Positions 27,807 to 61,236 of a DNA stretch of 64,000 bases are shown one piece after another. The notes under the pieces are model-generated. The model was given only the letters and a program-made list of their open reading frames with translations. It searched no databases and was not told where the DNA came from. Both the position numbers and the translations under genes were made by a program. Source of the stretch: Microbotryum violaceum (lineage: Eukaryota); assembly GCA_001244265.2 (NCBI GenBank), contig CDLV01000004.1, positions 310,001 to 374,000 of the forward strand, written 5' to 3'. Each line of letters opens with the position of its first letter. Positions within the stretch are counted from its first letter, which is position 1.

Positions 27807-27812
27807 TATTTC

Positions 27813-30788: not shown

Positions 30789-30895
30789 TAAAAAATACGC
30801 CTAAACAGGCGCGCGCGCAGCGCCCCATCACGTGCCTTCCAAGTCACTGCCCCAGCGGGGTGTACCCTTGCTACCCCAGGGCGCCGACTTGGCCC
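30789..30895. repeat. Left TIR of KDZ family 2
   Basis: TAAAAAATACGCCTAAACAGGCGCGCGCGC...GACTTGGCCC; reverse complement of 39764-39870. Confidence 0.95.
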
Positions 30896-31330
30896 CGTTG
30901 AGGTATGCCCACCTCGATGTCGAGCTACCGAGACGTTCACTCCCACTATAACTCGGTGGAAAACCTGGAAACAAAGGCACAGTCGGCGAGTAATAGTGCA
31001 TTCGGATTTTTGCATATTTTTTGAGAGTTACTATTGTCCTCTGCAAGCTGAACAAGAGCGCTACCTCAAACACGTGATTCGGCACGGGTCGCGCGGAACA
31101 ATTGGGGCCGGGACTGGCCGGGACGTCGACGCGTCACGACTCCGGAGACGCTGGAGAGGGCCGCGACGCGTCGCGCTCGCGCATACCGCCCATTCTTTTG
31201 CTTTGCTCAATCGCCCCCTACTACGTATACGAAGTAACGAACTAGAAACGAGCATCCGTGACTTTGCGACAGTCTGAAACGAACGCCCACTTCGAAATAC
31301 CGGATCAGTCATAGTCTTGCTGCTCCTGTC

Positions 31331-33634: not shown

Positions 33635-35116
33635 GGTGACGATGGCCGAGCGCTCAGGGCCAGCCGGACTCGTCGACGCGCATGCTGAAGGGCCAGAATT
33701 CGTTGGACAACACAGGCCACCACGATCCTTCTTTTATAGTTTTGCTTCATATGCATCCGGCTCTTGGTGCCTAAAGGCGGAGAGGGTTATTGTTCGTTGG
33801 CCCTTCGTGCCTAATCTTCCCCAGGGCCGCTCGAGACCGACCTCTCCTTGTTGACGTGGGATGTGCCAGTGACGTAATCCTGCTCACAAACATCATCCTT
33901 CTTGTTCTGTTTTGTTTCCGAAGTGTTATGTAGAGTTGAATTGCCCTGTGAGAATGGAGTGCTCCCTGATCCGTGGTCCAGACGGAGCGTCTGCTTTCCG
34001 GAAGTGATTCTTTGAGCAAAGAATGAATGAACAGAAGTCGCAACGCGATTCCACAAATTGCAGTGTATGTTAGCATCTTCTTATCATCTCTCAACACTAA
34101 AGTGAACGGGCAAGGGTTGCATCTGGCCGGGCTCGGTCTTCGCCAAAGTGCCAATCAGAACTGCTGGGCCACGCCGGCCGATTGACTTCAAGCGGCGCGC
34201 GCTCCTAGAAGCTGAGCCTGAACGCGCAAATGAAGCGGAGCGGAACACGTAGGAAATCAGTCGTAAGTAGCGAAGTAGCGACGAAGTACGTGCTTGATGA
34301 GAGGCGGGTCGTACTCGATAATATATTCGGTGAGAACATGGAAGGCTTAAGCTTGTAACAGGCTTTTGAACCAAAAAGCCCAATTGACTCCGAGACACAG
34401 TAATCGATGCAGTGGCAAATCGGCAGCCGTACCTGGCGGCTGACTTGAAAGCGTCTGAAACTGGAAAGTTCTCGATGGGCCGCTCATACCTACCTCTTAC
34501 TTGAGAAACATCCCTTCTCGTCAATGAGATATGCCGCCAATCCTCAGACCACATGGTGAGTGCTCAAAGCAGAGAGAATTCTTGCATTAAGTTCGCCGCA
34601 CTAAGATGAATTGTCAGTGGCATTTCTGGTGAATCCGAATGTACAAAGACTCGGCGGTATGAAGCCATTCAGCTCTCATCGCGATCTTCGAGTTAGGCAT
34701 GTTCTCAGATTATGACTCTATGATATTACTCGGGCTCTGATGTATTGTCGGCCATGAGAGCCGTCCGAAGAGTGTCGCAGCATCGAGCGGTCCACTAATG
34801 GTTGACCTGACTTCCCGGATGGGTCTCCTGAAGCTCCTATCTAAGGGTTATAGTTGCATCATCATCTCTGTTTGCTGTATGCGCGGATCTAATTGATTTG
34901 ACGCCATGAAAGGTCTTGTTCGTCACCGGTGTGCGCAGTCTAGGAGGTGAGGAAAAACGATCTCCGATTTCCCGTCAAGCATAGACTTGTTGACACCAAG
35001 CTTTTCTTAAAACACGCGCAAGTCTCGGTAGCAGGGATGGGGATCAGTGCAAAGGTTCTTTGGCCGCGCCATGGCAGAAAGTCGAGTCCTTCGAGCGGGA
35101 ATTCTCAGAGAGAGTG

Positions 35117-36052
35117 AACCGCCCAGCCGTCTTGTTCGGAAGAAGATACATTCTCTGTAGTGATCGAACCCACTCACCCATCTTCACGGGGTAGACCTTC
35201 TAGGTACTCGAGCAGTTGCATGCGTTTTGACTGAAATGACCCTCGGCACTGGTAAGGGAAACCGCCGAGCCATCTTGTTCGGAAGAAGGGCTTGCACGCA
35301 CATGCCAACTTTGCTATTCAACTCTGTCCGAAGGTAGGAGATACATTCTCTATATTGATCAAACCCCCTCACCCATTTTCACGTGGAAGGCATTCTAGGT
35401 ACTCGAGCAGTTGCATGCGCTTTGATTGGACAGTCACCCGGCACTGGTAAGGGAAACCGCCGAGCCATCTTGTTCGGAAGAAGGGCTTGCACGCACATGC
35501 CAACTTTGCTATTCAACCCTGTCCGAGGGTAAGAGATACATTCTATATAGTGATCGAACCCACTCACCCATCTTCACGGGGTAGACCTTCTAGGTACTCG
35601 AGCAGTTGCATGCGTTTTGACTGAAATGACCCTCGGCACTGGTAAGGGAAACCGCCGAGCCATCTTGTTCGGAAGAAGGGCTTGCACGCACATGCCAACT
35701 TTGCTATTCAACTCTGTCCGAAGGTAGGAGATACATTCTCTATATTGATCAAACCCCCTCACCCATTTTCACGTGGAAGGCATTCTAGGTACTCGAGCAG
35801 TTGCATGCGCTTTGATTGGACAGTCACCCGGCACTGGTAAGGGAAACCGCCGAGCCATCTTGTTCGGAAGAAGGGCTTGCACGCACATGCCAACTTTGCT
35901 ATTCAACCCTGTCCGAGGGTAAGAGATACATTCTCTATAGTGATCGAACCCACTCACCCATTTTCACGTGGTAGACATTCTAGGTACTCGAGCAATTGCA
36001 TGCGCTTTGATTGAAAAGTCACCCGGCAAGTCACCCGGCAAGTCACCCGGCA
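35117..36052. repeat. 195-bp tandem array arranged as a 390-bp AB higher-order repeat
   Basis: Units start at 35144, 35339, 35534 and 35729, with a partial unit at 35924. Alternate units are near-identical. The array ends in 3 x AGTCACCCGGCA (36017-36052). Confidence 0.95.
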
Positions 36053-36225
36053 GGAGTCTAATAAGGCAGGCGCAGCCCAGAGATTAGGTCTGACAATATT
36101 TCTTTCTAGAAGACGGTGTTATTACTCTCACCCACCGCAATTGAGACGACTATAGTTTGCAAACACCATTTCCATTGTTTCAACATTAAGTTGCTCCACT
36201 AATTCAATTTACATCAGAAGCTAGT

Positions 36226-39200
36226 CTAAACGTCCGAGAAGTATTCGTCTTCCTGACCAGCGAAGTCATCGCCGTAGCTTTCATCTGAAGAGCTGCCCAT
36301 CTCACCGTCCTGCTCGAGGAGTTGTGCGGAGAGAGGCCCCACCTCCTTTGCGAGTTCAGCCCCGTCGCTCATATCCATCTGTGCCTCAATGGCCCGCACT
36401 TGCTGAACGTCACGGGCCGGCGGTGGAGGCCCCGCGGAGTCGTCGAGGCCAGATCTCTCCATAGTACCGCGTGTTCCGGATCGATTATGTGCAGGTCGCT
36501 CGTGATGTTTTGTCTTCTTGACAGCTCTTCCCGTTGCGTTCAATCGTTGATGTAAACCACGAAGTTCTGACAATGCAGGAGGCATGGGCTCGGAATGGCC
36601 CTCTGACTGCCCGCGAGTCTCGAGCCAAACATCGAAGAAATAGTTGTTCTGGGACCAAGAACATTCGCGCAACTGCAGAAGCTCCATCCGGCGATCTAGT
36701 ATGATGAGCGCGCGGCCTCGGATCTCTTCAACATCTTCAGTGCCGAATATGGACTTGGCATCAGCTGGGTCGATGGATTCAGGAAGGGTATCTGTTGAGA
36801 TGGTTTGAAAGATGTTAGGGCGACCTAAGAGGTGATATGGAGCACGCCGTGTCGAAAACTTACCCGACACGTTAGTCCAAAGTGTCTGGCAACTAGTGAG
36901 ACGAGCTTTTTCATCTTCGAGCCAAGCCAAAGCTTGCCGCACCTCGGCGCCGATCCGCGCTTTCTCCTCACCGACTCGATCCTTGGCGCGCACAGCTGTT
37001 ACTCCTCGCTTGACCCAAGGATTGACAGCCCAAGCAGCTTCAACACGCGTGAAAAAGCCGTCCTGCCAGAACGGGTCCGTCTCATCGAGGTCGATCGCAG
37101 AAGCTGTCGGAAATCCGGAGATTGTTGAGTAGGCTCGAAGGTGTTGATCCCATCGCGAGACGGAAGGCCTCAACGGCCTTGTTGTACGTCTTGCGAGCCT
37201 TTTCCGCGCCAGAATAAATCTTGCCGTCTGTAGCACGAGCTTTGCTGACCGCTCGTTGACCTAGCTTTGCACCTCCCTTGCCACGACCCGTCGAAAGTAG
37301 CTTCTCCCGACTGGTTTTGTAGGCAATCACCTCGAGATGAATTTTGCGCAACGCCACAGAGCACTGGAACAGATGTCGAAGTTCTGCACAGCACCTAAGC
37401 TATCAGTGCAAGCTACAGCAATCATGTGAGCAACACACATTAACTGACCTCTGGACGAGAGGCCCGTGACATAACGAGCCTGTGCCATTGCCGCTCGATC
37501 GATGTCCATCCCGAGGCTGCGGCGTTTGGCGCTTAGCGATTCCAAGACGTCTGAATCGGGCTCTTCGGTATCCCTTTGCAAAAGCCCAGCAAGTCAGAAT
37601 CATAGACAGTGAGCGACGGCCTGGCCAGATGATCTACGTATATTCGCGACTCAATCTTGTAGAGGCTCTCCATAAGTCCATAGAGGTCGCTCTCCCTCAG
37701 GCGATCCGCCTCCGATTGCTGCGCAGCTGTCTTTGGCACTTGCGCCAGTCGCTGTTCTTCCCACTCGCGGCGGAGCGCATCTTCGTTCAACCTCGAATCG
37801 TAGGCAATGATGCTATTAAGCTCTTCCTCAGCAGCGACACCCTTGTCGTTTGCCTCATGGTAGCGACGATAGAACCAGGCCCCTAAATAAAACATATCGA
37901 GTGTCAGCATTGTGATTGAGATAATTGCGATCTAGGTGCGGCTTACCCAGCTTGTTGACGGTCGCGTCATTCAGTGCTTGGATACGGACCGCCAGGTTGA
38001 CGAAGCGATGGGACTTGTTCGAGGGGCGGTTGATGGGAATGAGCGACCGTAGCCCGCTCCACAATCGCTCACAGCCCTCTCCATCAGTCAGCCCGAAGTT
38101 CGGAATGAGGCGCGGGTTGAACTCGACTTGGCAGGACCAGATATGGGCGTATGCATGGAAGACGCTCGTGGCGAACTCCAGTCGCTTGAAAAGCTTTGGC
38201 AGGAGCTGCCTCTGGTGACAAATGATAAAGTAGGCGCATTTGGTCAGTGCCAACGAAATTGAGGAGGAAGGGACCCGTCGTAATCGATGCGAACCTTTTC
38301 AATGTGGTGCTTGAAGTTACAAGCAATGTCGTATAAGACTCCGATCTTGGCGTGTTCAGGAAGGCGCTCTGAAATGTGCTTGAGGATGGCAAGCGCATAG
38401 TACAATCTGAGTGGTCGGAGGGGAATCTGCGCATTAGTACTGGGATTCGAGAGGAAAGCGGAAGCGACTAAGTCTCGCCAGACAGCTCCGCGCTTACTTT
38501 TCACCAGACCTCTCAAGATTGACCATTTTCAGGTTCACGTCATGACGGCATACGCAGGCAACGAGTCCGGTGTCGACTACTCGTGACGAGGTTGAGCCAG
38601 CTCCGTCGTCGGCAGCCTTCCACGACTCTGTGCACGCCTATGACGGTGGGTGGGTGTAGAGGCAAGCGATCCCATTAAGGCAAATGCAAAGAGCGGCATT
38701 ACTCACTTTTTTGGTCGGTCGCACCGAAGCTTTAACCTCGGCCTCCATCGCCTGAACCTCTTCCTCAGCCAAGAAAATGTCCGGAACGATTCCTTGGACG
38801 TCATGCTTCGAGTTTTTCTCACGCGTTTGCTGAAAGTTACCGTCGTATGCAAGCACGCAATCCAATGTGACGTCGTGACAAGGTTGATTAAGTCACGTTG
38901 GCCCGAAGCACGCGGGACACTTGTTGGAACGAATCGACGGTGCCTGCGAGAAGGTCCCCGCTGTCCTCCTCGCATGTTTCGAGAGCGCGGTACTCGTCGA
39001 TCGCGTTGCTTCCGAAGGTCTTTGTCCTGTATGCGCAGAAGGCAGGCTTTAAGCAAGTGCCCATGAGGCGATGGCGGCGTCCAAACTCACCCAAGGATGT
39101 CCCGTATAGTGACCCCGACCCCACCCACAACGGGAGTAATACTCTTTGAGGCCGTCCGCATAGCCAGTGATAGCGCGGGGGCTGACCTTCCAGCTTGCTT

Positions 39201-39378
39201 GGGCCTGCTCGACCAGTCGAAATGAGAAGGCGGTCATCGGCATTGAAGCAGTCGAAGAGATGAACCCTAGTTGGGCCAAGCGTTCGACGTCCGTAGCACA
39301 CCGCGACTCGGAAGCACAGAAGGTGACCTGCAATTTGTAGACCGACGGTTTGGACTTGTATCTTCTCTTCGGCGGCAT
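36226..39378 (-). pseudogene. KDZ transposase (CxC1-like + KDZ domain), multi-exon, probably frameshifted
   Basis: VTFC...LGFISS...TAFSFRL, CPACFG, AYDGNFQQ, ACTESWKAADD, DTGLVACVCRHD, IGVLYDIAC, VFHAYAHIWSCQVEFNPR, FGLTDGEGCERLWSGL. Confidence 0.88.
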
Positions 39379-39763
39379 GGCGATGCCGAGTCAAGTGCAT
39401 GAGCAAGAGGACTAATGCGAGCCGTGGGGCCTGTACAGTCGATGGCGACGCTACAAGGAGCTGTAGCGAAAGCAACGAGGTGAGGCGGCATGTCAAGTGG
39501 AAGGTCCCTCGCGTGTTGCGCTAGGCCTCGGCGCGCGTGGCCGACTGCCGACTGCCGCCAACGCGTGTGCTCGGACCCTTCGATCTCGGGACCGAAATCC
39601 CGCGCGACCGCTTCGGACACGTGACATTGACAACATCCGAAAGATGCGTGAAAAATATGAAGGAAGGAATGCATCTACTACCCACTTTCCTAATCAATCT
39701 AGCAGCTGTGAGAGTGTTGTGTGTACACAGAATCGACTCGAAGCAGAGAGTTGGGTGTAACCT

Positions 39764-39870
39764 GGGCCAAGTCGGCGCCCTGGGGTAGCAAGGGTACACC
39801 CCGCTGGGGCAGTGACTTGGAAGGCACGTGAGGGGGCGCTGCGCGCGCGCCTGTTTAGGCGTATTTTTTA
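39764..39870. repeat. Right TIR of KDZ family 2
   Basis: Reverse complement of 30789-30895. Confidence 0.95.
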
Positions 39871-39902
39871 GCACGCACACATAACCGCTCTACTCGCTTG
39901 TC

Positions 39903-40079
39903 ACTTTGGGCTCACATAAGGTCGGCTTTTGGGCCCACATCGGAGGCGAATCTGGTCCCACATCGGAGGCGACTTTGGGATCACATCGGAGCGGACTTTG
40001 GGATCACATCGATGCGGACTTTGGGATCACATCCGAGGTCATTCTTGTACCACGTTCATGGGAACTTTGGTACCACATA
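39903..40079. repeat. 23-bp degenerate minisatellite, about 7.5 units
   Basis: Consensus ACTTTGGGATCACATCGGAGGCG with an exact 23-bp period from 39903. Confidence 0.85.
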
Positions 40080-40638
40080 GTGTAGAGGCCTGTATCTCTT
40101 GCAATATGTAATGTATCACTCTGGGGAATGTAGTATGATGTATGTACAGGTCTATAGTACTTCTGGCGGGTGAGACGAGGCGGACAATGCAGTAGTTGCT
40201 ACATCGGGGTTCTTCCCCGCTGTGCCGCTCCGCGCCCGTGTCAGCGGTTAAACCTTACGCCGATCGTCACGAGGCAGCAAGCGTAGCTTGCAATAAATAT
40301 CATAGGGTGGAGCAAACGGTTTTTTCTTGCTGACTAGAATACTTATGCGGTAATGATATAATCACTACATGGGTGAGCTGTAGTGTTCCTTAGGCCTGCA
40401 ATCGTTAGCACCCTTATTCGAGAAAATTCAAATATTCGGCGAAAGCCCTGGGCCGCGCCAAAACTCGCAGGCGCTCGTCGTTTGACGGGCTACACCGGCA
40501 AACTCACGAATGCCCCTGAAAGCAGCTCCTTTCCTCAGAGCTTCACACGCTCACTGGTGTTTCCCCCACTCTCTCTTCTTCTTACACATAAAGTCCTCAC
40601 GTAAACACTCCTCCCTATCTTAGTCGCGCGGAAATACT

Positions 40639-41274
40639 GTGCATCTCGAGCAAACGACGCCCAGTGAGGGGTTTACCTTCAAGGTAGATGGCGCCAGTCG
40701 CACTCATCATGTCGACAGGAGAAATGAGCCAACTGCTCCAAAACAAAGGGGCCGACCACCCATCGCGTTGCAGGAACAAAGCTCCCCAGAGGGATACGCA
40801 TCGGAAGTTGACTCGGAAGTGGATGAGGATGAGGACAGTCTGCAAGTCTTGGCAGCTTTGGTCCCGGTTCCCTCAAAGTCCTCGATATCTAGCCCCTCCG
40901 CAGTCTCGGGGCTTTTAATCTCTCCAAAGAGCCGTTCGAGAGACTCCGACGAGGATTCGGCAGACGAGGGTTACTACGGAGTCGACGACGACAATTCGGA
41001 CGAGAAATCAATTGACAACATCTTCTCGGCACTACTCCTGGCTCGGAACGACAAGAAGATCCTTGACCGGCACACGTACGAGCCCTCTCGACAGGACAAA
41101 GAGTTATCAAACACGACGCGCGAGGCAATTTTCTCAAACATGATCCTCACGACTGCAGAGCACAACGAGCTCCGTCTCAGGCCGCTTGTTCTCAATTGTC
41201 GCAAGCCGAGGTCCGGATGGGAATTTGTACGCAAACTTCCTGTCCTGGAGCTCCCAAAGTTCATGGCTACAGAG
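40639..41274 (+). other. Possible exon of an unknown acidic protein
   Basis: 214-codon ORF with a RGRP motif and acidic tracts, ending at a GTATGT donor. No family recognised. Confidence 0.3.
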
Positions 41275-42170
41275 GTATGTTGAAGCTGCATGCTGCGCTG
41301 CGTTTTGTTTCGTCCTGTGAACGACCTAACTTTCATTGGTGCGATCTATTAACAGAAGCATGACTGGGCTCCACGCAAATATGAACGCTGTCTCGCTGTC
41401 GTCGAGCGACCTTACATGATACATGTTGCTCCTTGGTAATGATAAACACCCCCGTTCTGCATCCGACCCAGAGCTATCCTCTTGAGCGTCCTCCATGTCA
41501 ACGTCCGTAGAATCTGAGCTGAGTTTGTCGCAGTTTGATTCTTCGACTGGTGGTGGGTCTCCGCAGTGAGACAAGAGGTTACGGATGTGTCCACTGATGA
41601 AAGAGTTGCTTTCGACTGTTGCGTCGAGGCGTGCGTCAATCTGATCAGATGCCAAGACTTCAGGAGCCATGTCGTGGCTGGAGACGAAGGCGGATTTGGT
41701 TCGTTTCATCTCTTTCACAATGATTGAGTCAGACTGCACAGGTAGGATGCAAGTGTTTAAGAGGCTCTGCCGCGGTCTTGTATACTGATCTGATATGCTG
41801 GAGTGTTACCCACCTGGTTGGCGATCCAATCATTGGTTCGGCCTCGTACGTCTGGGCCATGTTCGCAGGCGAGTTGGAGTTGTATAATGAGATCAAGTAC
41901 ATGCTTGAGCCGGGTCCAATTACTGTTGAAGAGCTTTGGCCTATGATTGTGCACCATCGTGTTGCGTTGATGGGCTGAAATACCACGAGAGGTATTGACA
42001 TAGCGAGAGCTTGTGAAGCCGAAACCGAGCGAATAGATCCGCCTGACGGCGGCGATCCTGGCGAGTCGTCGAGTCATAGCGTCTGCGGTTCCGCGTCATT
42101 CGGAGATAAGCGCGGTGTTGCATCGAGAACAAGCGAAGAGCATAGTACCGGGAAGACGAGTGATGCGGAA

Positions 42171-42232
42171 TGCGACGGGAGAGAAACCGATGCGCACACG
42201 CTGCGACGGGAAAGAAACCGATGCGCACACGC
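42171..42232. repeat. 31-bp tandem duplication
   Basis: TGCGACGGGARAGAAACCGATGCGCACACGC twice, one mismatch. Confidence 0.85.
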
Positions 42233-42674
42233 CGAAGTGCGCAAGCCGGCGGCTGCAGCAGCGTGCTGCCGCTCGGACCAGTTGGGACCAAATTGACCAA
42301 ATTTACACACTTCAGATCATTATAGCTTCGTCTACAGATGGGGTATCCTCTTGCCGTTCGGCACCGGCCATTTTTTCTAGTAGAAGATCATCAATAGCTC
42401 TGCGTTTTGGATAATTGTCGGTAGATGCCACGCTACAAAGAACCACCCCAAAATGGCCTGGAAATTTCGGAGGGCAACTGGGCCAGGCGCGCCGGTAAGT
42501 CCTAAGCCCCTCCCAGAGGGAGGGCTTAGTTGAGCTTACGGACGGTCGTGCTTTCGACAATTGCGCGCGCTCCTTATTGGGCGATCTACGCCCAGAGGAT
42601 ATCAATTAGGACCGATTAGGAAACAATCGATTACACGCGGAACCCTCCGCTGGCTCTCATCGGAACCATTAGTA

Positions 42675-43250
42675 CACATGCGCGCGCGAAACTCATGGAG
42701 CCCATATGGAAAAACGCCGTATGTCTGCCAAGACCAAAGTTACCTTGCACCCAAAACTGAACGGCTTTCGAGGGGGCGTCCAAGGCTCGCCTCGTATCTC
42801 TGTAAATCTGGCAACAGCAGCTTTGTTCCAATGCTGTTCCAATTCCTACCTCTTCGCGTATGGCTCAGGAGTAAGCACTCTGCAAAGGACGGCCTTTAAG
42901 GACCTAACCGGGCCCAGGTCAGGTCAATCTCCTAGGAGAATTGGCCCGATCCGCTGGCTTAAATCCGAAGTCATAGTTCTCCCGGCGGCGCCCGGTACTC
43001 ATCGGTGCCAACTCTTCGGGGTGACCAATCGAATTGTTCTACGTCAAGGATTGCCAACTCAAGGCGCACAGAATTTGGACAGGCCTATAAGGCATGGCGG
43101 CCGTAAGCGCGTTGGTGACTCAACTGAACGACCTTGAGTGAAGCCATCGCATGGGCCCGGGCGGCCCACCGGCATTTCGAAGTCGAACCTCTTCTTGAAG
43201 TGGGCTTGATTAAGACCGAGTCGGATACGGCTCCGGAAGGGTTTTGAAGT
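42675..43250. mobile_element. End of a CAC-terminated DNA transposon (same terminus as 27806)
   Basis: TA|CACATGCGCGCGCGAAA followed by CCATATGG, CCTTTAAGG, CCTAGG and CCTATAAGG motifs. The inner boundary is unknown. Confidence 0.5.
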
Positions 43251-44821
43251 AACCCCAATAGATCTACAACACGACCTCGAACACGATTGGAGAGACCCTG
43301 TATTTATACCTGCCATACGCAAGTAAATCACAATCAGGTTCAGGTCACGGCTTGCGCTGTTAGGTCGACCCCTTGTCCTCTCGGTGGCGACCGCCGGCCA
43401 GGCTCTACTGTGGGGTCAAGGGGGCCCAATCGACAACCTATAACGCTCTCAACTATGTGCACAGAGGCCAAGCGGTTCCGAATCAGAAGTCCCGGAGGAC
43501 AGCACGCTGAGCTAGCATATTTCCATGAGAGGGCTACTAGCCCCTACGTGAAGTAGGTGTTTTAACCATTAAGCTAATCTCGCAGTTCCTCCAGCTCCCG
43601 CAGCCCGCAGCCGGCGTGCGGCGTGTTGGAATTTCGTTTCCGTAATTTCCGGCTTCAATAAGCACCACGAGAATTTTGAAGCAAATGATTCCTACCCCAA
43701 AAGTCAGGACATAGCCAAACGTCCCCATCACGGATTTCTCTCGCAGATCCGTTCCGACCAGTAAAATCGACGGCTGGCTCGACGAAGAAACGAAAGCGAC
43801 CGCCGCGCGGTCCCACCCCTCTCTCCTCCCATCCACCCACATCCCACACGGTAAGTCACTCATCCAAACCCAGTTATACGCCGAGCTATGACGACAATCA
43901 TGCCTTGATAGGGACATCACGAACACCTTCCTCCTTTTGGGGGGGAAGGTGGCCTGTTGAGAAACGTTCGATCAGCTAGTTTAAACTGAGCTCATCGTCA
44001 CCCCCCGTTCTTTACTGATGAAGGAGAAAGGGAACTCATACGATTTGAATCGTTAACTTTGACGCATGATGCTGACACTGTATACGTTGGCTTTGTTCAG
44101 TCCAGGTTGCAAGTGATCGATTGCGGTGGTTGGGCCGTGGTTGCGAAGCTTTTCCTCTGCGCCATCATCATTGCTCGACCCGCGCTCGATTCCGACTTCA
44201 TGTTGTATCCTATGTCTTCCCTTATATTTGACAATCCACAATCCAAATTGATTCTTCTACTCTCCGCATCGAGGAGCCAGGTCCTTGAGATCATGCATCT
44301 GGTTGAGCCTGGCAGGGTCGCATGCGTGGCCGTGTGAAGACGCTGGCTCCAGCCCACGTACTACTTGCTCACCTCTTTTCAAACGAGGCTGTCGTCGTCT
44401 CTAGAGACGCACTCGTGGCCTTTTGACGAGTCACCGGGTTGGCAGACCTTGCCGAGCAGGCGGGCCTTGCAGATTTCGCGCTGCAGCGGACTTCTCGAAC
44501 AGGAGCATTGCACTTTAACAGCTTGTTGTCAATCACGGCGCATTCCCATCTTTGTGACCGACAAAGCTATCTTCCTCTTGCCATGTTCCGGCCCGTCTCA
44601 ATACGGTCACGGATCACCACTGCAATGCTTGTGCTACAAGTAGCCTCTTAATCCGAAAAGCTTTCATAATGCAGCATCGTGACTTTTCCACATTGTCAAG
44701 AGCCGGTCTCAATATGTATCACTGACAGTCACCGGTTCGGCCTGAAATGAGCTCCTGAGCGATGAGCTCGTGAGCCTTTCGGTTTCGTAAGCAACCCAGC
44801 CGGAACACAGCGCAAACAGGC

Positions 44822-44985
44822 GCAAACTCGCGCAAAGGCCCAGATCGGCAGGTCCGTTAACCCAGCCAAATGAGCTCCCCCGCGGGCGAGTTAAGGCAGC
44901 TTTTTTGTTTTTTGGCCCGGTTGGAGGTTGGTACAGGTCGGGTGCACCAATGCCCTCCCCACCCCATCCCACCCGGCGCAGTGCA
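44822..44985. repeat. Left imperfect TIR of KDZ family 1
   Basis: Aligns by eye to the reverse complement of 7490-7652; the outer limit is approximate. Confidence 0.65.
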
Positions 44986-45681: not shown

Positions 45682-47588
45682 ATGACGCGACCGTCAGACA
45701 TACGCGTGGGATCTAGGGAAGGTTCTCCGGCAGAGTCTATTTCCTTTGGCGCTCATCCGAGTGAGTGCTCTTGTCTGGTGTTCCAACTGAGATCCCTTGT
45801 AGCAGGGCTGAGAGCAGAGTGCCAGTCATCAACCTCATCCTTCTATCTACTCAATCCTGACGGACAGCTGAAGAAGTCTCTGTTCTCTCACACCTCTTGC
45901 AGGTCGGAGGGACGATCAAAGCCGTCGAGCCTCCTCACAAGCCAGTACAATTCTGGATGAACCGTCTCGACGCCCGACTCGGAAGAGAAAGCGGCGCATG
46001 CCCGTGCCCCAAACCCCTTCGTCCGACTCCGACTCTGACGAGCCCAATTTGGGCGATTCCAGTCAATCCTCGGCTGACGACAGTGACAGTGAAAGTGACA
46101 GTCACAGTCACAGTGAGAGCGAGTTTGAAGATGTCGCGATCGACCATCGAAGAGCTGTCAGGCTCTGGACGGCCATACATGGCTCGCATCGGAACGCGAC
46201 CGGTTGTATGAGTCAAAGAAAGTGGACCTCGCTGAAGCGCTGGGCCGCTCGAAGATATTACTCGGAGCTCAAGATGGCCGCGAAACTCGGCATATCTCAT
46301 GCAAGGCTCGTTCAGGCCGCCAAAAAGTTCGACAGGCTCGCTTCGAAGGGCAATGCGTGGTCTAAATTTCTCTCGGACCCTGTAATCAAGGTTTTACACT
46401 AGCGAGCAAGCAAGGGTGAGTGGTCCTCCGGGCGCTTCCGGTCATGCCCACTCCACTCTCCTACGCTCTCGCTTATGCTTACCGCTGCGTCCGCAATGTC
46501 TGTTCTTACATACCCTGGGTGTGTCAAACGTGCTCAGAATCGGATCAGTCGAAATCGCAATCCATCACCAAACTTGCCGCTCACCTCTGGAACTTCCTGA
46601 GAGACCAGGGGGACCTCGCATCTGCCCAACTTGGCGAGGACGACGAAGAGCTTGTTCGCGCGGCTTTTGCAGCGGCAGAGGCCGGAGGTAATACGACTTT
46701 CACTTCGATAGTACCACCCACCATCATCACACGGTCGCCATCCAACATTCCTTCCCCAACTCGGATGGAGCAATGCAAAAAGTACATTGCAGAGTTGCGA
46801 GACCTGGCGTAACGCATGTCCAAGCTGTACGGAGTGGAAACCCTGGCCTTTATTGTCCCTCGTTATCAAGACGACGTGTCGCCAGCGACGAAGGCGACCG
46901 TGCATTCGATAGGTGGGCTCAGATTTGCAGCTCACTGCAACGACTTCAAGGATCCATCCGGCAATTCCTTGTTGTCTAATTTTGCTTCCAAGATGAGCTG
47001 GGATGAGACACTCAAGGCCAATGAAGCGGCAGATCTGAAAGAGGGTGAGCCTTTCATCGCAAGTTATACGCGCATGAGACCAAGTTACCGTTACCAATTA
47101 TGTGACATATGTTTTCGTCTCATCTATCAGCAAGAACTCGCTCGATGGACAGTGCTACTCGTGGCGTTCTTGGCAAATGACACGGCACTCTGTTCCGCGC
47201 CCAACTCAGTAAGTAGTCTGCATCTGATCGGGCTCGACTCCGTGCTAATCATTTCCGTCTTTACAGACTCTGCCCTCGAGACTATACATCGCCGTTCCGA
47301 CACGGGATCATCGACAGGCGCTTTCACACCTCAGAAGAAGATGATATGGTCTACCCAGGGCTTGAAGGCACTGGGTGCCAAATGCGGATCAAGCCCGGGA
47401 CGAAGAGTAGATACGAAATGGCTCTGCATCATAGTGCAGAGACATCGCCCAAGCAAACCGTTGCTCAGCTCAAGGCTATCATTGACGACCTCCGTCACGG
47501 CCGCCTCGCTATCGTACCCTCGGCGGACCCGAACGACAACACGGAGGCAGAAGCAAGCGACAATGACTTGGCGGAGAAGGACCCCTGA
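45682..47588 (+). pseudogene. HMG-box-like KDZ partner gene, copy b, with premature stops
   Basis: Phase-consistent intron 45761-45902, RKRKRR motif, GNAWSKFLSD, intron at 46416. In-frame TAG at 46400 and TAA at 46810 (CAA in copy a). Confidence 0.65.
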
Positions 47589-48732
47589 GCCCAAGATTTG
47601 GTGGAGCCGGGGACGAAGGCGGAGAGGTACTCGGCGGAGAAAAAAGCGGAGAAGGGTGGCGGAGGAGACCGGAGGATGAATGAAGCAAAACATCGTCGAT
47701 GTGAGACCGTTCTGATGTCTTTCTTTGGGCATACTATGCTCTGAGTCGGTCTGCAAGATGACCGATATTTGTTATGTCTCTGTGGTTTGTGACGCGTCTT
47801 TCAGTGTAGATCCTTGAATTTAGTTTCAGATGATTGTCATGCACGCATACAGCGTCTCAGCTGCCATCTTGATTGTGGCAATTAATCTTAACAGGATTGT
47901 AAATCAATACGATCAGAACGCTCATTCTGTCAGGCTCCGCCAAGATCACTGGGCATACTCGAAACCCCCCCCCCCCCCAGCGGACTGTTTCCTACGTCAA
48001 GGCCCGGGGCCCCTGTGTGCTCCGGGCGCCGGCATCCCGTTCATCCACGGCCCCCCTTCCAGAGATTACGCTGGAGTCTTTCTTCACAACCAATCGTTCC
48101 GCACCTTTGTCCTACAAGGACTCGGGGCGCACCGCATGGGCCGCAGCACAACGGTGTGGCGCTCGCATCCAGGCAAGGCGACATCTCTGCGCATCTATTT
48201 ACCTTTGGGTCAACGAAATTAGAATAGCACTCGGCCGACGCATCTCCTCTTTCTTCTTCTTCTTCTTCTTCTGAACTTGTGATGTACAAGCAAATGGCCA
48301 TACACCTTTTCCAACTTCGACCTCATCGCCGTTTCTTGCGCCTCCCGTTTCAAACACACTTGGGAACCGATCCCTCCTAATCATTATCATATCCATGTAT
48401 CCATGCTTCGTCCGAAGGCACCGTACCATTGACCGGGTCTCGTTGCACAAGTCTGTTTGACCTTTTGGCCTACCGTTATCTTCTTCCCTTAGATACAATC
48501 TGACTTCACCTTCGTGTCGGACCGGTTGCCACTGCATAACCCTTAACTGCCTGCGCGCCGCAAAACCGGACGGTGGACAACTGTGAGGGCATTCGGTGGG
48601 AATGCAATACAGGGGTCAGACGACAGCTCGACCTCTCCTTTCATGTCCCATCCTGAATTCACCCATCGTCGCAACTATAAGACCCAACTGAAGACCAAGA
48701 AGTTGACCATCACAATGATGACAAGACGGTAT

Positions 48733-53401
<4,669 letters not shown>

Positions 53402-54328
53402 GGTATGTCCCGTCGAAAAGAACTCTGAAAACACCCTCCCGGTTTGGGTACTTTCAGTCTGACTCCAACACGACGTGTTGTCCACCTTGGGTTTGAGCCC
53501 TGATTGGTGTCAAAAGACTATATGACCTGCCATCGCCGAAAACCACGGCAGGGCAGTCGGTCGGTCGATATTAGAAGGAGGCCTAGGCCACAACAGCGTG
53601 CAGAACTCTCAAGCCGCCTAATGCGATGAGAAAACGTAGAGCAACGACAGAGCAAGGGGTGTATCAAGGTGAGTCTGACTCGCTCGTGGCTTTGTTCAGT
53701 AAAATACAGCACAATACTTCGGGTATGGGTGACTATGACTTGCTGCAGTTCGACTGTTGAAACGCAAGCGCCCGTGATGACGTACTTCGCATCGAGATTA
53801 CAGTGAGCGTGTGAACTACGCAGGAAGGAATTGCGACAAAGCAGTACGCTGGATCAGGACTTCGTTCAAGTATACATCAAAATGTAGTCGGCAGTGTTGG
53901 AATATAATAAGTACTTTTGCAATCCCTGCTGACTGTTTGGGAAGTGTCACCCAAGGCACGACGCGGACTGCGCATGTGACTGACTGGCAGGGAGCGCGGT
54001 CTACATGTAGGAGATCTCAGTGCAGTCAGTGCAACAAAGATGCAATGGACGCTTGTGTTCACTCCCTCAGTGTAGCGCGCTCTTCCTCTAAATCTTACCG
54101 GTCGTGTTGGGCTCCGGCTGCCAGCTTTACTCGAGCGACATTAGGCGAGCCACCGCAAGATCGAGCGATTTAGCGATGCCGGGTCTTGGATGTCTGATCG
54201 CTCTTGTTGCACTTCCGGGCGAAGCGTCGTATAACGGGTAGAATTACTAGCGAAATGAACGCATCATTGATCTCTTTACTAGTGCAAGTAGCAACTGGGC
54301 AAAAGACTGCAACTATATATGATCAATA

Positions 54329-54944
54329 TCAAATCCCCCAAAAAACATCGCCATCGTCTTCATCAAAGTCCTCGTTGATCTCGTCACTGAAGGCGCCGTA
54401 ATCGGTAGTGTCGACGGAATGATGACTCAGATCATCGCCCGAATGATCAATGATGTCAAGAAGGGTGTCATGATCCGTGGTGATGTCGTCTGACTCTCCG
54501 ACCATCCCATCATTGATGCAGTCTGGCCATGTGTGATCCGGCAAGCCACCCGCTGAGATTCGTTGAAAAACATCAACGTCGTCGGTGCACCACATTCGAA
54601 GCTCGACCCACTCCTCCACTTGCGGTTCGCCGGTTTGCCGGGTGCATTCCCACAGGTGATCTAGGCCGCCCTTCGAAAACCATCGGCGCGCAATATTTCT
54701 AAGACGCTCTTCTTCTTGCTCGAGCATCATCATCGCAGAGTCATCCTGCTCATCTCGTTGGATTGATTGCTGGCGAACTTGCTGAAACCTCTTGCGACGG
54801 CTTATCAGCCACCGTCCAATGCGACGCACTTCCCATGCAAGTCGCTTGATTTCTTGCTGGCATCTTGCGCGAGACAATACTGCTGGAATGCCGACACTAA
54901 CATCATCTTCGTAGGCCCACGGCTCAGTGGAATGACTATATAAT
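54329..54944 (-). pseudogene. 3' remnant of the family 1 KDZ transposase
   Basis: Near-identical to 3194-3809. Confidence 0.85.
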
Positions 54945-57900
54945 CGAACCGTCGAGAGGGCGGGTTTCCTGCAATCATCTCATCGGACTCCCCAAACTCC
55001 CTCCCGCAATCTGCGCACGGATTACGGCACGGGTCTCGCCCCGAACCTTGCGAGCCTTTTGCTCGGCAGTTCGCACGTCCGCAAAAACGACAGTGCTTTT
55101 TACGCCTTTTTCCGGCTCCCTCGACTCCATCATCAGCGGTCAAAGCAAGGGTCGCCGCACTTGTTTCTTGGAAAGCCTGTATGGCGACAGTTTGAGGTTC
55201 TGAAGCGACCACCTCCGCTTCCGAGCGCCGCCCCAGGGTTGGCGGAGCATGTCCGATCAAAGGTTTTGTCGGCAGCATGTCGACGTCTTGAGCGCGATCT
55301 GGGTCAAGCACTTTTTTTGGAGCGTCTTGATGTCATCCCCTGCCATTGCCAAAGTTGCTTGAGCATTGGCGAGCGTCGTACTTTTTGACATCCAAGTGAT
55401 GATGTGCTCGGGCATCTATTGAATGGCACGAACGTCGTTAGCCCGGTTCGCGTGCGAGTCGGTGTGAGTGAAAGAACGCCCACCTTATAGAAGACACCAT
55501 CACCATCTGCGTAATGATTCCAATCTCGAGTTATCTTGTTCACGCGCTTCTCTTCGCTCCAGTCTGGTGGCACGCGGCTGAGCAAGTACTTGAAGAGCGC
55601 GCGCTCTTTTGGAGAGTGCTCGTGCAGAATCACAAATCGAGTTCCTTGGCGTTCAGCAAGCCAGTCATGCCGAGGCTTCAGACGTTGTACTGTTAAAGTT
55701 GTCGATGTTGGCCAGCTACGTGGTTTCCACTCGAGAGGTTCCGAGCGTGGGACAGGGGTGAGAGGCACATACGTCTCGAGGTTGAGCCCTGACTGGGAGC
55801 TCTTTAACAAGTCGACGCGTGCCACACCTAAGCGCTCCGAGGACTCCGCGTATAGCGTCGGATCGATGATCTTGGAGGCTGTGGACTCGCGGACAGGCAA
55901 AAGATGTGCGGTTTTTTGTCGCAGTCGATACAGATCCAGAGTGAGCCATAAGTCGAAATGACCGGTGAAAGCCACCCCAGTGCGATTGTATGTGCCAACC
56001 TGCAAGTTTGAATCGTGAATGAGCTTCTTGTTGCTTGTAGTCAACACGACCGATAAACGTGCCGACTGACTGTAAGATTGTGTCCTAGTACATAGTCCAG
56101 CAGGCGAGCGTTTGCATGACGCGGAGTGACGCCTGACTTAGCGAAGCGCGCGCGGAGATTTCGATGGATGCCACCTTCGAGGCCGTTCGTGCCGCGCCGA
56201 CATGAATACAAGCGGACACCATCATCAGCTGTTCCATCAGGTCCACGACAACGTCCGAGGTCGGTGTAAAGCTCGATGCCCACTGGATCAGAAAGCTGTC
56301 CCTTTCGAACGAGTTCGAGACACCTTTTCGCGGCGAGGAGTGCAGCCTTATTGAAGAGGGGCTGCTTTGTTTTAGCATCGAGCAACGACCCGAACGCCTC
56401 GAAAACTTCCCTGACCAATGGCTCAAGAATGCTTGGAGGAGGAATCGTTCGTCGGACACGCTTCCAGATGTATTTGGCGTGAGCGGGCGACCGTGTGGCT
56501 TCGTCGAAAGTCATCATCGCTTTGGCGACTCGTATCGACACTAGGTGCTTGTCGTCTAGGTTGACGACATAGATGGCATCGGAGAGAGCGCGAAGGAAAG
56601 CTCTTGTAGCTCCGTGCTTTTTCGATAGATAGATCCTCTGGAAAAAATGGAAGGTATCCATGAGAATTCGGGGTTTGGGATCATCGAGCGACGAGGCTGA
56701 CCAGATGAAAGAGATGAAAATCAAATGAGCCTTAAATCAAACTCAACCGAGGAACCGGAGTGACCAACCTTTGTTTCCGTCGGCAGCGTCTAAGATGGCC
56801 GAGATCTCAACCGCAGTCGTCTCGCAACGTTCGAGTAAGAGCGCTTCTTCGAACTCAGCGGTCGCCGCATCGAGACTGTCGTCGAAGTCCTCCGTGTGCT
56901 CTTCCATCTCCGTTTCTCTCGTGCAGGAATTCGCTACGGCGCCAACGTCCAGTGCTTTTGAAAGCGAAGATATCTGAGCCGAGGACAGCGACGGCTTGTG
57001 AGCGGACGTGAACGTGTGAGCTGAGCTGTGGACGGAACTCTCGATGGTGACCTCATCGTCCAAGTCGACCACGAGAGCATCGAGCGCAAAAAGGAACGGG
57101 AATGATCCGTCACCGCATTGGGAGCGAACGTTGCTGTCAGTGTTCTGTTGAATTGAGAACGCTCGTAAGGCCAAAAGATCGCGCTGTGAAAAGTCATCGC
57201 AGTTGGTGTTGTATTTGGGAACGAGCGCTCCAGGAATGAGGATTTGCGTGATGGCAACGACAGCGCGGCTCTTGCCCCATTTGAATCCGTGAAACTCGGG
57301 TGGAGGCGCGCACGTTTCGTCGATCGAGGAATCAACTGTCTGGATGACACCCGCGCGATTGGACGATCAGGTTCATACATGATAGCGACTTGAGTGCCCA
57401 CACACGGAAGTACCAGAGGCGACAATGGTCGCGTGTGACTTTACTGATCGCCTTGTAGACGAGAAGCGACGCGTAGGCGTCGAGTGCAGCGTACATGATG
57501 TGGCGTGGGGGCAGCGTCGTCTCAGCCCAATCCATTGATCGACGAATTGATTCGTCTTTCGGCAGCCGTTTCTTGAGGAAGCGTTTCGAAAAGTGCGCGA
57601 GGCTTCGAGATCCAACTCCTCTCCCGAGCATGTGGCCGCTCAGGTTCGCGTGCTGCGCCAGATCCAATCCACCGCGATGCTTGAAGGTTTCGGTAAGACT
57701 GATCGGATTCTCCTCATCGATCGCAAGTTCCCAGCGCTCCGCGTTCGTGATGGCGTTGACGATGCGAGTGAGGTCGCCAGCAACGCCGACGCCCACCTTC
57801 AAGATATCCGCGCGTTCGAGAAAATGCCGAAAGGGCGGGGGCAAACACCATTTGAAGCACTTTTGTATGATCTGCGAGAGCTGTAGACATGCAACAATTT

Positions 57901-59971
57901 GGTAAGTTTTTTTGTTCGACTTTAAGTGGAAGAGCACGGGTACGAAAAGCTCACTTGAATCACATGAATGAACAAGTCTCCCTCCAGTGATTCCCAGGCG
58001 AATTGGACGACGTCAACGGCTTTCTTGGGGGCCGCAATGGCCATGTTGCGATACGAGTTTGCGGGAGCGGTTGCCCATTTGGCGTCAACACCAACCACAA
58101 GTTTTCCGTCTTTGGGGATGTTTTCTGTTATCTGCCTCAGCACTTGGGTCAACGCGGAAACGGTGTTCACTAGAATAGGGGTCGTCTCAGGAGGTAGCAT
58201 GAGGTCGCCTTGGCGCGGGCCTGCGTTGGTGCCGAGAGTCGGAGCAAGCGAGGGAGCGTTTGTATCAAGAATGTAGTGTCTTGGTCGGGCTGATCCGTGT
58301 AGCAGATGGATGGTTGTTCGTGACCATACAATTTCAGATGCTTCGACATGTCCTCGAGTGGTGATTCGAACGGCGCGTGGCCTTTGGTCGCGGTGAGGAC
58401 GGTGAGTCGAACTTCGCCGTACTCGTTTCCGACCATCAGGAGCGCATGAAAGGGAGGAACGCCATTGATCTTGGCGATTTGCTTCGGGACCTGAGATGAA
58501 GAGAGACTCATTGGGTTAGCACAATTCGAATTGATCAAGGGTTTGCTTGCCCCTTTTCCAAGTTCTCACCTTGTAGCTGTGATCGAGTGACATGATTGTG
58601 CAAGGGCCAAATGAAACATGGTGGCGTATGAGCGACTCGTGTCTGAGAATGGGCAAAGCAAAGAGGGTCAGCAGAGAAGATTAGAAGCAAGTATCCGCAA
58701 TGCTCGATACTACAATCCGGCCTTACTCTTCTATTTTCGCATTGAAAAAATTCGCAAGGACCTTCGATGTTGGCACATAGCCGCAATTGCCCGCCGGGTC
58801 ATCCCAATCACTGATGTCCTGATAAGGTCCCGGCTTTTGGCGCGCGAGCATGGCCGACCTATAGTCGAGCTCTAGCCTGTTGTGGGCGGCACGATGAAAG
58901 CAGACAAGCATGTCGGAAATTTGCTCGGCTCCCAGACCGTAGTGGAAGGAAGATCGCACTAGATCGAACACCTCCGAGGTAATGGCGGTGCGATGTGACA
59001 AACAGAACGGGAACATCGAGCGCAGTGATGGATCCAATTGGACAAGGACCTCTGGCGACCAAGACCGATACGTTTTGGAGCACTTGTAAGAGCGGCCGAT
59101 GAGATAGACGGACTTGCGGAGACCACACGCTCGGCGCGGCCGATCCAAGAACCCGTTCAGCCTCAACATGCCTTTTTTGAGGACGGCTTCGTTGAGCTCG
59201 CACTCCATGCACCGCAGGCCGACACCCGCTCGCTTGTCATCTGGCTAGCCGATCATTAGGAGGGGATCCCAATAGAAGAACTGTGGTGCGTAGATGTCCA
59301 GATTGGCGTTGGAGATGCGGCCGTCATAGAGCCTAGTCCAAGCCGACTTGACAGGTAGAAAACCGTGAACTAGCTCATCACCGCTCTTGTGGTGGCGTGC
59401 TTTGTTGGAATAGTTGTTAACACGCCTGATATGCGCGAGGTGGTGGGTCGTTTGCGTTTGGAGCCAAGCGGGGTGCTTCCAACGTTCACTTCCTTTGGTC
59501 GCCCCTGTGGCGACTTCATCTTCGTCGCCGTCGTAAAGCTCGCCGCCTCCTCCATTGCAAAGGGGTACGCCAGCCTCGATGAAATCTGACGCCTGCGTGA
59601 AGGCTTTTACCTCTACTGGCAATGGCCGAGTTGACTGCGGGCGTTGCTGGCTCGAGTTGGCGATGGTGGTTGAGCTGGAGAGCCCCGCGACACGTTGCTG
59701 AACGTTGGGCGAATTTGATTCCGAAGGACTAGAGGCATTGGAGCTCGAGCAAACGAGCTGAGGCGCTTGAGGGCTTGAACGGATTCCTTGCGATGCGAAC
59801 GATAGTTTCGTTTTACTACCTCTATATACGAAAAAGGTGAGTTAAGGTATGTACCTAAAATCGCTGTTTTTGACTAGGTTGCGGCCCGGAGGGCCGCCTG
59901 TGGTGGATGTACCAGCCACTTTTGTGTCTGCCGCACCTGCCTGTGGCGTCGGGGTTCCGATCAGAAGTCAT
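54945..59971 (-). pseudogene. Putative DDE transposase (DUF6729-like N-terminus) with an inserted DnaQ/WRN-like 3'-5' exonuclease domain, multi-exon, disrupted
   Basis: PQFFYWDPL, PRR..GL...YLIG..YKC, FPFCLSHR; MSLDHSYK, GNEYGEVR, ICYTD; exonuclease VGVDAKW, FLERADILKVGVGV..D, DW....L....MYAALDAYAS; then MDTFH, RVRRTIPPP, LSDP, RGTNGLEGGIH, GHFDLWL and a Cys-rich tail. The start is approximate. Confidence 0.7.
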
Positions 59972-60453
59972 GTAAAAGCCCTGTGGTGACTTTTGTATTA
60001 CCCGCGCCGTTCCAACGAAGCTACAGCGCTCCCAGTATTTTCTTTCCTTTTTCAGTTGAAGTCAAACAATGCTTACACTTATATTGCATTTAATGGACGG
60101 CAAGCGCGTGGCTTTGCGTGACATTGGCGCCTGGCGGCTGACGCGCGGGCGAGGGCTAACATTTGTCACGTGATGCGGCGCGCCCGCCGTGTCATGGCCC
60201 GTCCGGCAGTCGACCACCGGCATTAGGGGCTAAACAACAAAACAAACCACGTAAATAATACTGTGCCACTCCCTCGAATCTTTCCTTTCTCCCTCCCACT
60301 CTCATCCAATTTTAGTGACACTCATTCAAGAACAAACCTTCGCTACTGTGTAATGCCCCGGTCCCACGGTCGCCAGGGAGGGCCATCGCAACCTCGCCAA
60401 GTCTTGGGCGTGAGGGTAGCGCCGTACCATAGGACCCCCGAAAGCCCAGCCGG

Positions 60454-60590
60454 AGGCGCATTTTTTTTTTTTTTTTGACATTTTGAGGACCCAAAATCCT
60501 GAAAATCGTCGAGGCGCATTGCAAAAAATTGACATTTGGGACGAAACACACGTTTCGCCCCCGAGGCGCATGTCCAGAATTTTGACATCT
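60454..60590. repeat. Three spaced GAGGCGCAT...TTGACAT modules, probable subterminal repeats
   Basis: Modules start at 60454, 60511 and 60563, upstream of the exonuclease-transposase. They are followed by CGCCT repeats ending near 60726. Confidence 0.55.
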
Positions 60591-61236
60591 TCCCGTGATT
60601 TTGGCCTACCCTTGTTGAACTGCATTCTGCCAAGCCTTCGAACAATTCGACTTCGGGCCGCCGTTTGACGGGCTTGTCCGCCTTTCGCCTCGCGCCTTCG
60701 CCTTGGCGCCTTGACACGCGCACCTCTGGCTATATATCTAAGCACACCAAAAAGTGGCGCGCGCGGCGCCCCTTCCAGCGCCACTCTTAAGCGGCGTACC
60801 CATACAGGTTGCCCCCCCCCTGCAACCCGGGTTGTTCGAGGGCCCGAGGCCAAGGGCACACGGAGGCTTGTGTGGGCTCCAACAGTTTCATCTCATGTAC
60901 GTGTGTGCTCAAATCAGGTTATTCTAGTCATCGTAGTGTGTAATTCGTATTTGGAACACTCAGCGTCAATTTTTTCGGTAAATTATCAGCGAGGAGAGGT
61001 TCGATTAGGAAACATCATTACTAAAGTGATAAAATGGCATTATTGAACGTGATAGAGTCTCGTGCCCTTTCACCACGCTAACAAACGCAAGCGACACTGA
61101 GTGACAACGAGCGACTTGACGCCTTTTCACGCTTGACGCGCCGCTATCGACCACGTGCAGTCCTGGTCTTACCCCTTCCTGTCGCCGTTACGCTCTTCGT
61201 CATATATCTATACTTGACGCCATCCGACGATCCGAT

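Follow-up and report, generated by a model that had tools for sequence, protein, structure and literature searches.

How a WRN/DnaQ-like 3'-5' exonuclease comes to stand inside the catalytic core of a DDE-type transposase, and to which kind of transposon such a gene belongs, are the questions raised by one locus of Microbotryum violaceum (GenBank assembly GCA_001244265.2), found in a 64,000-nucleotide stretch of contig CDLV01000004.1 (positions 310,001 to 374,000, forward strand; hereafter the window, in which all coordinates without a contig name are counted). The locus is a seven-exon gene remnant on the minus strand, retaining ~4.9 kb of an element of estimated ~6.1 kb, and this copy is dead, with both ends lost, one stop codon and four frameshifts. 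It very probably represents a doubly truncated ~6.1-kb transposon of the exonuclease-bearing fungal and algal branch catalogued under Dada. An exonuclease inside a DDE core is not new, the same insertion having been published at the same place in 2013; added here are the ends and the 8-bp insertion scar of this branch, both open in the papers compared.

Transposase core and exonuclease in one spliced gene

The initial annotation, made from the sequence alone, proposed a DDE transposase of the C/DxxH group with an exonuclease between its second catalytic aspartate and the DxxH motif, and the motifs lie in the proposed order, all on the minus strand and where they had been placed (SLDHSYK at D1, ICYTD at D2; Table 1). 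D, D, a WRN-like DEDDy exonuclease, DxxH and E fall within one spliced gene of seven exons: contigs of X19 and X20 (one study; two of the four runs examined) skip exactly the six introns predicted from sequence and homologues, one contig joining the D2 exon to the exonuclease across the intron and another joining the linker to DxxH and E, with a 30-base overlap, and no single contig among those examined spanning the whole gene. X19 and X20 are not recorded as RNA and are read as transcripts solely because the six GT-AG introns are skipped; they stem from a related copy in an organism labelled differently, not from the window copy. The rebuilt reading of 1474 codons (X at breaks) matches positions 85-1447 of 1459 in a profile of 37 full-length homologues (E 4e-291), with a D1-D2 spacing of 70 residues and 498 residues from D2 to DxxH. 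Among 10 pieces scanned with Pfam, DUF6729 was found on 58726-59244 (E 1.4e-10) and DNA_pol_A_exo1 on 57380-57880 (E 3.6e-4, under its cut-off), the remaining pieces giving no match at E<0.03; the closest named proteins are from Microbotryum, with 95% identity to a model of M. lychnidis-dioicae.

A search with the DxxH-E exon returned 1222 protein clusters (E<=0.001), and long family members keep the same motif order in Pucciniomycotina, Agaricomycetes, Mucoromycota and a chytrid, their database names being just '3'-5' exonuclease' or 'hypothetical'. Across 75 homologues of at least 800 residues, with the 3-13 rows gapped in a given column excluded, the DDE residues are kept in 64/64 (D1), 67/68 (D2) and 72/75 (E), and those of DxxH in 73/75 (D) and 72/74 (H); the corresponding counts for the exonuclease are 58/62 (Exo I D), 60/63 (Exo I E), 62/67 (Exo II D) and 67/70 (Exo III D), Exo III being of the YxxxD type, that is, DEDDy. 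Because these acidic residues are kept in 92-96% of the homologues with a residue there, the exonuclease is under selection, and the domain combination first proposed from one sequence is borne out across its relatives. One chytrid model (P0096, 3352 residues) carries three D-D-exonuclease units in tandem.

The fold check, made on homologue P0028 with a model built from a 37-row alignment (predicted local distance difference test, pLDDT, 78.8), agrees with that combination: residues 207-415 match the WRN exonuclease (Z 25.9, root-mean-square deviation (rmsd) 2.1, 185 residues aligned), and residues 65-831, around the exonuclease, match the ISCth4 transposase (Z 13.3, rmsd 4.3, 248 aligned), the only transposase among the best 50 matches of the wide fold search. 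A single-sequence fold of the DxxH-E exon (pLDDT 42) was not used. WRN is clearly the best match of the exonuclease (E 2e-37 vs 3e-25 for EXD2, for which Z is 18.4), and this, together with the conserved acidic residues and the fusion within the catalytic core, argues against a nuclease that does not act on transposition DNA, be it an RNA nuclease of the RNase D/MUT-7/EXD2 kind that weakens silencing or a passenger in a permissive loop. A role of that sort is improbable, although RNA-acting DEDDy enzymes are among the structural matches, only the Dada elements of Laccaria and Ectocarpus are said in the text of PMC3706591 to carry the exonuclease, and the genome holds at least 62 matches to the DxxH-E exon vs at least 15, at 7 places, to the exonuclease exon. 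Among the 62 are relatives of greater divergence (protein identity 53-78%), a large share of them on contigs C1 and C2; most lack an exonuclease match nearby, and they may form an exonuclease-less or deleted subfamily.

In the genome as searched (33 Mb, 20 contigs) the element is multicopy, with four further copies, A to D, 95.8-98.1% identical to the window copy, and none of the five compared is intact. A zinc finger of the form CxxC...CxxC (the N-terminal CCCC finger) is present in copies B, C and D and in the RNA contigs, and a C-terminal cysteine cluster is likewise present, with no histidine at the CCHC spacing of fish Dada. The window copy and copy A have in common a 15-bp loss near 59086, which removes the fourth zinc-finger cysteine, and the exchange of the Exo I glutamate for lysine; private to the window copy are a stop at 59247-59245 and three 1-bp losses (near 58255, 57443 and 57352), and its A run near 55318 is shortened by 1 bp, the fourth frameshift. 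The inactivation of Exo I, raised as a possibility in the annotation, is supported for this copy, and the damage extends to the stop, the four 1-bp losses and the zinc-finger loss as well. Elsewhere, copy B has asparagine for the Exo I aspartate, copies A and C have it for the Exo III aspartate, copy C has a stop directly after Exo I, and all copies carry frameshifts. The annotated MDTFH is present in the window copy and peculiar to it, the other four copies reading D-P-F-H in place of D-T-F-H.

Because the Exo I glutamate is present in three of five copies (B, C and D) and in 60 of the 63 homologues, its loss is a lesion, attributable from its sequence context to TCG hypermutation, and not a family trait; the residue also stands in contigs of X18-X20. 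On the opposite strand the change turns C into T within TCG, and C-to-T changes affect 38 of 1263 TCG sites (3.0%) vs 126 of 10,663 other C contexts (1.2%), in copies that are not independent of one another. TCG hypermutation has been reported for Microbotryum (PMC12730594).

Terminal repeats and target-site duplications

Copies A, B and D have their right end in common with three different flanks, and the left end of copies B and C is an imperfect mirror of it, 20 of the 25 terminal bases matching between the left end of copy C and the right end of copy D. The family has ~25-bp imperfect terminal inverted repeats (TIRs) of the form GG-N10-RTGT-N4-GG and 8-bp target-site duplications (TSDs) with an A/T-rich core. 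Searching the genome with the end pattern gave 23 left ends and 17-22 right ends, vs 0-1 control matches. Left-end matches stand ~2 kb from a right end at eight places, in one of which the left terminus is deleted, and because no match to the DxxH-E exon falls between the ends (among genome matches to that exon), these pairs are non-autonomous copies sharing the termini of the family. An A/T-rich profile is common to the last six left bases and to right bases 3-8 (23 left and 19 right flanks), and perfect flank pairings number 6 among 437, vs 0.49 expected, a count reached by 0 of 5000 shuffles. Two more 8-of-8 flank matches link distant ends, one of them in a tandem repeat, where it may reflect two insertions. 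The flanks of element ends differ from each other; matches to other repeats were seen in at least 10 of the 36 genomic ones.

The same ends and the same duplication recur beyond the genus, in metagenome relatives. Of 79 related loci, 25 with a near-complete gene were scanned, the other 54 having mostly a partial gene or a contig end; 8 of the 25 showed an 8-bp direct repeat beside the inverted repeat (swapped-flank null 0.0) and 17 showed no 8-bp match, other lengths being found in 0/25 (9 bp), 1/25 (7 bp; null 0.4) and 4/25 (6 bp; null 0.5), where three of the listed 6-bp cases are 8-bp sites read one base outward. Seven loci are convincing (L095, L096, L105, L136, L143, L156 and L166; 5.4-9.1 kb, six distinct elements), with TIR matches at 16-22 of 25 bases; L095 and L096 are one apparently intact 5643-bp element at two sites, the alignment between which breaks exactly at the ends. 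All seven carry D1 and the Exo I D-x-E, at 26-40% identity to the window protein, and their ends read GG-N10-RTG[T/G]-N4-GG, a register that the Microbotryum ends fit. These loci link the termini to this transposase lineage and set its TSD at 8 bp. The eighth match, most likely L103, was dropped as a self-complementary stretch; at L101 both ends are present and the flanks match at 5/8 positions.

Small-RNA targets were sought beside these ends. At 18 loci no small nuclear RNA (snRNA), transfer RNA (tRNA) or 5S family was found at E<=0.1, the sole matches being of microRNA type, far below cut-offs and located on a hairpin insertion in copy D; tRNAs numbered 0 at 25 loci and Rfam matches 0 at 12 loci, and no small-RNA gene was found at 5 rebuilt empty sites or at the 79 metagenome loci. 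Many genomic flanks are 30-90 nucleotides only, where a split target gene might escape detection.

Two other origins, domestication as a single-copy host gene and the chance position of a WRN-like exonuclease gene of the host inside an unrelated transposase, would suit the names that homologues bear in databases, and a domesticated Dada exists in fish (PMC8869645); the probability of either is close to nil, and both are refuted for the window copy by five dispersed copies at 95-98% identity that are all disrupted, by exons spliced together, including the D2 exon with the exonuclease in one contig, and by TIR-bounded copies with TSDs. That the order of domains recurs across Basidiomycota, Mucoromycota and a chytrid likewise speaks against a host gene.

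One 8-bp flank is common to a left and a right end that are oppositely oriented and separated by 615 kb (C2:750091 and C2:1365487 of G000; L076 and L049), possibly through inversion between two copies. The ends of copy D, L071 and L070 (C2:2154191, C2:445257 and C2:3291117) all lie in one short-tandem-repeat family, either a preferred target or joint duplication, and L080 (C17:569413) is a left end inserted head to head in the right TIR of another copy. The common flank of copies B and C (L035 and L038, ~1.3 kb upstream) holds an open reading frame (ORF) that looks secreted, with a signal-peptide-like start and His-rich repeats, duplicated with the element.

Relation to Dada and a possible mechanism

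The element was described in the annotation as poorly classified, a view not supported here, and the superfamilies listed for it (Mutator, hAT, P and Kolobok), sound as to the C/DxxH group, omitted the one that fits: Kojima and Jurka (2013, PMC3706591) reported for Dada of Laccaria bicolor and Ectocarpus a DEDDy exonuclease placed after the second D and ahead of DxxH, which in their view probably processes the 3' ends left by cleavage, a guess that the annotation repeats. A fungal survey lists 1,023 Dada elements in 4 phyla (PMC5751038), and a 2025 Ectocarpus library notes the WRN-like domain in an element given as 'incomplete' with TSD '?' (PMC12477816). Exo I-III of the window agree with the motifs of Dada-1_LB and Dada-2_LB in Fig. 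S1 of PMC3706591; P0117, found with the window DxxH-E exon alone (E 5e-33), agrees, counted by eye, at 49 of the first 63 residues of the Dada-1_LB exonuclease as printed, and P0105, found with the same exon, carries the Dada-1_LB Exo I region. Dada-1_LB, Dada-2_LB and Dada-1_ES/Dada-1_Ec32 resemble the window element in the DEDDy exonuclease site, Exo I-III, introns, length range and N-terminal four-cysteine finger (PMC3706591, PMC12477816); they differ in that ends and TSD are here defined for the window family, and the main text of PMC3706591 gives no target for exonuclease-bearing Dada families.

The target-specific Dada of fish, Daphnia and Perkinsus have a similar D..D..DxxH..E core and spacing (D1-D2 68 residues in Dada-U6_DR vs 70 in the window protein) but no exonuclease (PMC3706591, PMC8869645). 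As published there, Dada have no TIRs, with only short subterminal repeats, duplicate 6-7 bp and target snRNA, tRNA and 5S genes, and for Dada-U1 the authors 'cannot rule out' 8-bp TSDs. The window family has the DDE triad with DxxH after the second D and the N-terminal CCCC finger of that definition, whereas its branch has TIRs, 8-bp TSDs and unrelated flanks; because it departs on these three points, the element is a variant of the exonuclease-bearing branch (Dada-1/2_LB, Dada-1_ES) and not a typical Dada, and the definition needs a qualifier. Proteins with DUF6729 and DNA_pol_A_exo1, listed in databases as host '3'-5' exonuclease', gain an identity as this kind of transposase. In a literature search that did not extend to Repbase, Dfam or subscription journals, no paper was found that mentions DUF6729 or that describes TIRs or 8-bp TSDs of fungal Dada; the ends may already stand in Repbase entries or in the 2013 or 2022 supplements, which is the main risk to novelty. 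A search for animal Dada proteins with the fungal profile, weak in being word-limited, gave 45 matches, the named ones all fungal.

Outside Dada, the IS256 element ISCth4 (PDB 6xg8; PMC7780238) resembles the window family, with the fold compared on the homologue, in its RNase H core, helical insertion domain, C/DxxH, 8-bp A/T-rich TSD and subterminally conserved imperfect TIRs; its TIRs vary in the first 14 bp, as TIR positions 3-12 do here, and its insertion domain contacts flanking DNA. Unlike the window element it is prokaryotic, ~400 residues long, without exonuclease or introns, and moves through circles. MULE/MuDR elements (Muta1; PMC5499845) have C/DxxH and a TSD of 8-10 bp, vs 8 bp here, but TIRs of >100 bp vs ~25 bp, and their DxxH follows D2 by 15-45 residues vs ~500. 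KolobokD (PMC9587614) is likewise a C/DxxH-group transposon encoding a DnaQ-fold exonuclease, though of DEDDh and not DEDDy type, and Kolobok has a 4-bp TTAA TSD vs a variable 8 bp.

Several observations weigh against this assignment. The fold is that of homologue P0028, which shares 32% identity with residues 291-1144 of the window model; ISCth4 comes 22nd among the fold matches, at 13% identity, and Foldseek and its VIA second look gave exonucleases only, among the matches listed. The tie to fish Dada is taken from the text of PMC3706591. The left end of the autonomous family is known from copies B and C, which have one flank in common, and no autonomous copy in this genome has both ends and a TSD. 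Among nine same-place end pairs of this genome, one has a perfect 8-bp TSD, four have 5-7 matching bases, the right side being exact and the left altered by 2-10 bases (small insertions or deletions), and four have no TSD.

In the mechanism proposed for this Dada variant, the transposase would bind the conserved subterminal part of the TIR (positions 13-25), as suggested by the anatomy of the ends and by ISCth4, would cut at the terminal GG and would join the 3' ends to the target with an 8-nucleotide stagger, host fill-in then yielding the TSD. Excision would proceed by cut-and-paste with breaks or hairpins on flanking DNA, as in MULE and hAT, a mode that the shared C/DxxH insertion domain makes marginally probable; flank hairpins have been shown for the MULE Muta1 (PMC5499845). 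The exonuclease, presumably active in intact copies, would stand where the insertion domain begins, a domain turned towards flanking DNA in ISCth4, and, granted the rest, has an even chance of trimming the 3' ends of broken donor flanks or of a gapped junction, DNA 3'-end trimming being the best guess because the exonuclease is under selection and closest to WRN. Most described Dada lack it, which makes it an accessory. The defined ends and TSD, together with spliced transcripts and the apparently intact metagenome elements (L095/L096), open the 2013 guess as to the exonuclease to direct testing.

Of the four imperfect pairs, one has its exact right junction demonstrated through an empty paralogue (found for one of four flanks searched), and the same is inferred for the other three: the paralogue holds the right-side eight bases, and the left side of the insertion has a 10-base filler. 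Carry-over of two donor bases at the right end, giving a 6-bp TSD plus two foreign bases, is ruled out by this paralogue, and a second site likewise speaks against it. Two ragged left junctions hold short inverted copies of adjoining sequence, which fit hairpin opening or template switching and prove neither.

The asymmetry between exact right and often ragged left junctions would also suit IS256-type copy-out/paste-in by the same element, in which attack by one end on DNA a few bases beyond the other makes a circle, the circle integrates with an 8-nucleotide stagger and the exonuclease resolves the single-strand bridge or spacer. ISCth4, alone among transposases in the best 50 fold matches and with its A/T-rich 8-bp TSDs and outer TIR variation matching the window family (PMC7780238), points the same way, and fish Dada sometimes replace target bases on one or both sides (PMC8869645). 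This route is nonetheless unlikely: the donor bases predicted for the right end were not borne out, the empty paralogous site showing the bases there to be target-derived; the nearest tested eukaryotic IS256 relative, Muta1, makes flank hairpins (PMC5499845); and no circle junction was seen, in contigs only and with no search aimed at circle junctions. Doubtful, and more so than copy-out/paste-in, is a broader reading in which the exonuclease-bearing fungal 'Dada' would be a widespread IS256-like eukaryotic lineage with its own signature (GG-N10-RTGT-N4-GG, 8-bp TSD, no fixed target) and the ancestral Dada state, the 'no TIR, 6-bp TSD' of fish being partly a misreading from fixed targets, and movement being asymmetric, possibly circle-based, with the exonuclease processing one junction; such processing would explain the exact right and ragged left junctions of this genome.

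Limits of the remnant and neighbouring repeats

Missing from the window copy are ~911 bp on the 5' side and ~271 bp on the 3' side, with both termini. The start at 59971 given in the annotation falls in a different repeat, the element stopping at 59813, and was thus off by ~160 bases. The native 5' part is kept in copies B, C and D, and loose ends at 59813 in runs X1, X18 and X20 run on into sequence of the B/C/D type.

Table 1. Features of the element remnant and its immediate borders; motif coordinates give the first base of the codon on the minus strand.
Feature	Position	Strand	Remark
Element remnant	54946..59813	-	Shared with copies A-D
First retained coding exon: low-complexity N-part and DUF6729 cysteine domain	58727..59813	-	
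Exon with catalytic D1 (58584)	58570..58642	-	Flanking introns absent from contigs of X19, X20
Exon with catalytic D2 (58295) and Exo I (D 58086; K 58080)	57955..58490	-	
Exon with Exo II (D 57775), Exo III (D 57481), beta-rich domain and acidic linker	56769..57880	-	
Exon with DxxH (D 56658), helical insertion domain and catalytic E (56178)	56071..56696	-	
Post-catalytic exon	55484..55999	-	
Last exon, C-terminal cysteine cluster, cut off at 54946	54946..55415	-	
Six GT-AG introns	58726-58643, 58569-58491, 57954-57881, 56768-56697, 56070-56000, 55483-55416	-	From sequence and homologues
Not element: ~620-bp multicopy repeat in place of the native 5' end, in window copy and copy A	59814..60433	.	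Holds ATG at 59971
Not element: interior of KDZ-type transposon, joined by a deletion truncating both	53402..54945	-	

The repeat at the 5' border has at least 10 other copies at 85-89% identity and is not assigned to a type. A further TIR family, whose ends are TATGAGG/CCTCATA-like and include long runs of A, has ends at 60431-60612, 12941-15338 and 27749-44919, and two ends of the exonuclease-bearing family sit in the subterminal region of that family. KDZ-type DNA transposons occur in two copies, 99.5% alike, one from 1-3809 onward to ~6500 and the other at 46463-48732 and 53402-54945; the KDZ Pfam match (E 8e-19 at 4782-5159) lies in a stretch that continues the other window copy, with at least 24 further matches in the genome. 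Inside the second of these copies stands a long terminal repeat (LTR) retrotransposon at 48733-53401, presumably of Copia type judging by its motifs, with 279-bp LTRs 99% alike and ORFs for gag-integrase (50381-53125) and reverse transcriptase (48996-50459), and a second copy of it begins just right of the window. A 195-bp tandem array of ~4 copies (35144-36028) lies within a 107-bp inverted repeat pair, 99% alike and 8.9 kb apart (30789-39870).

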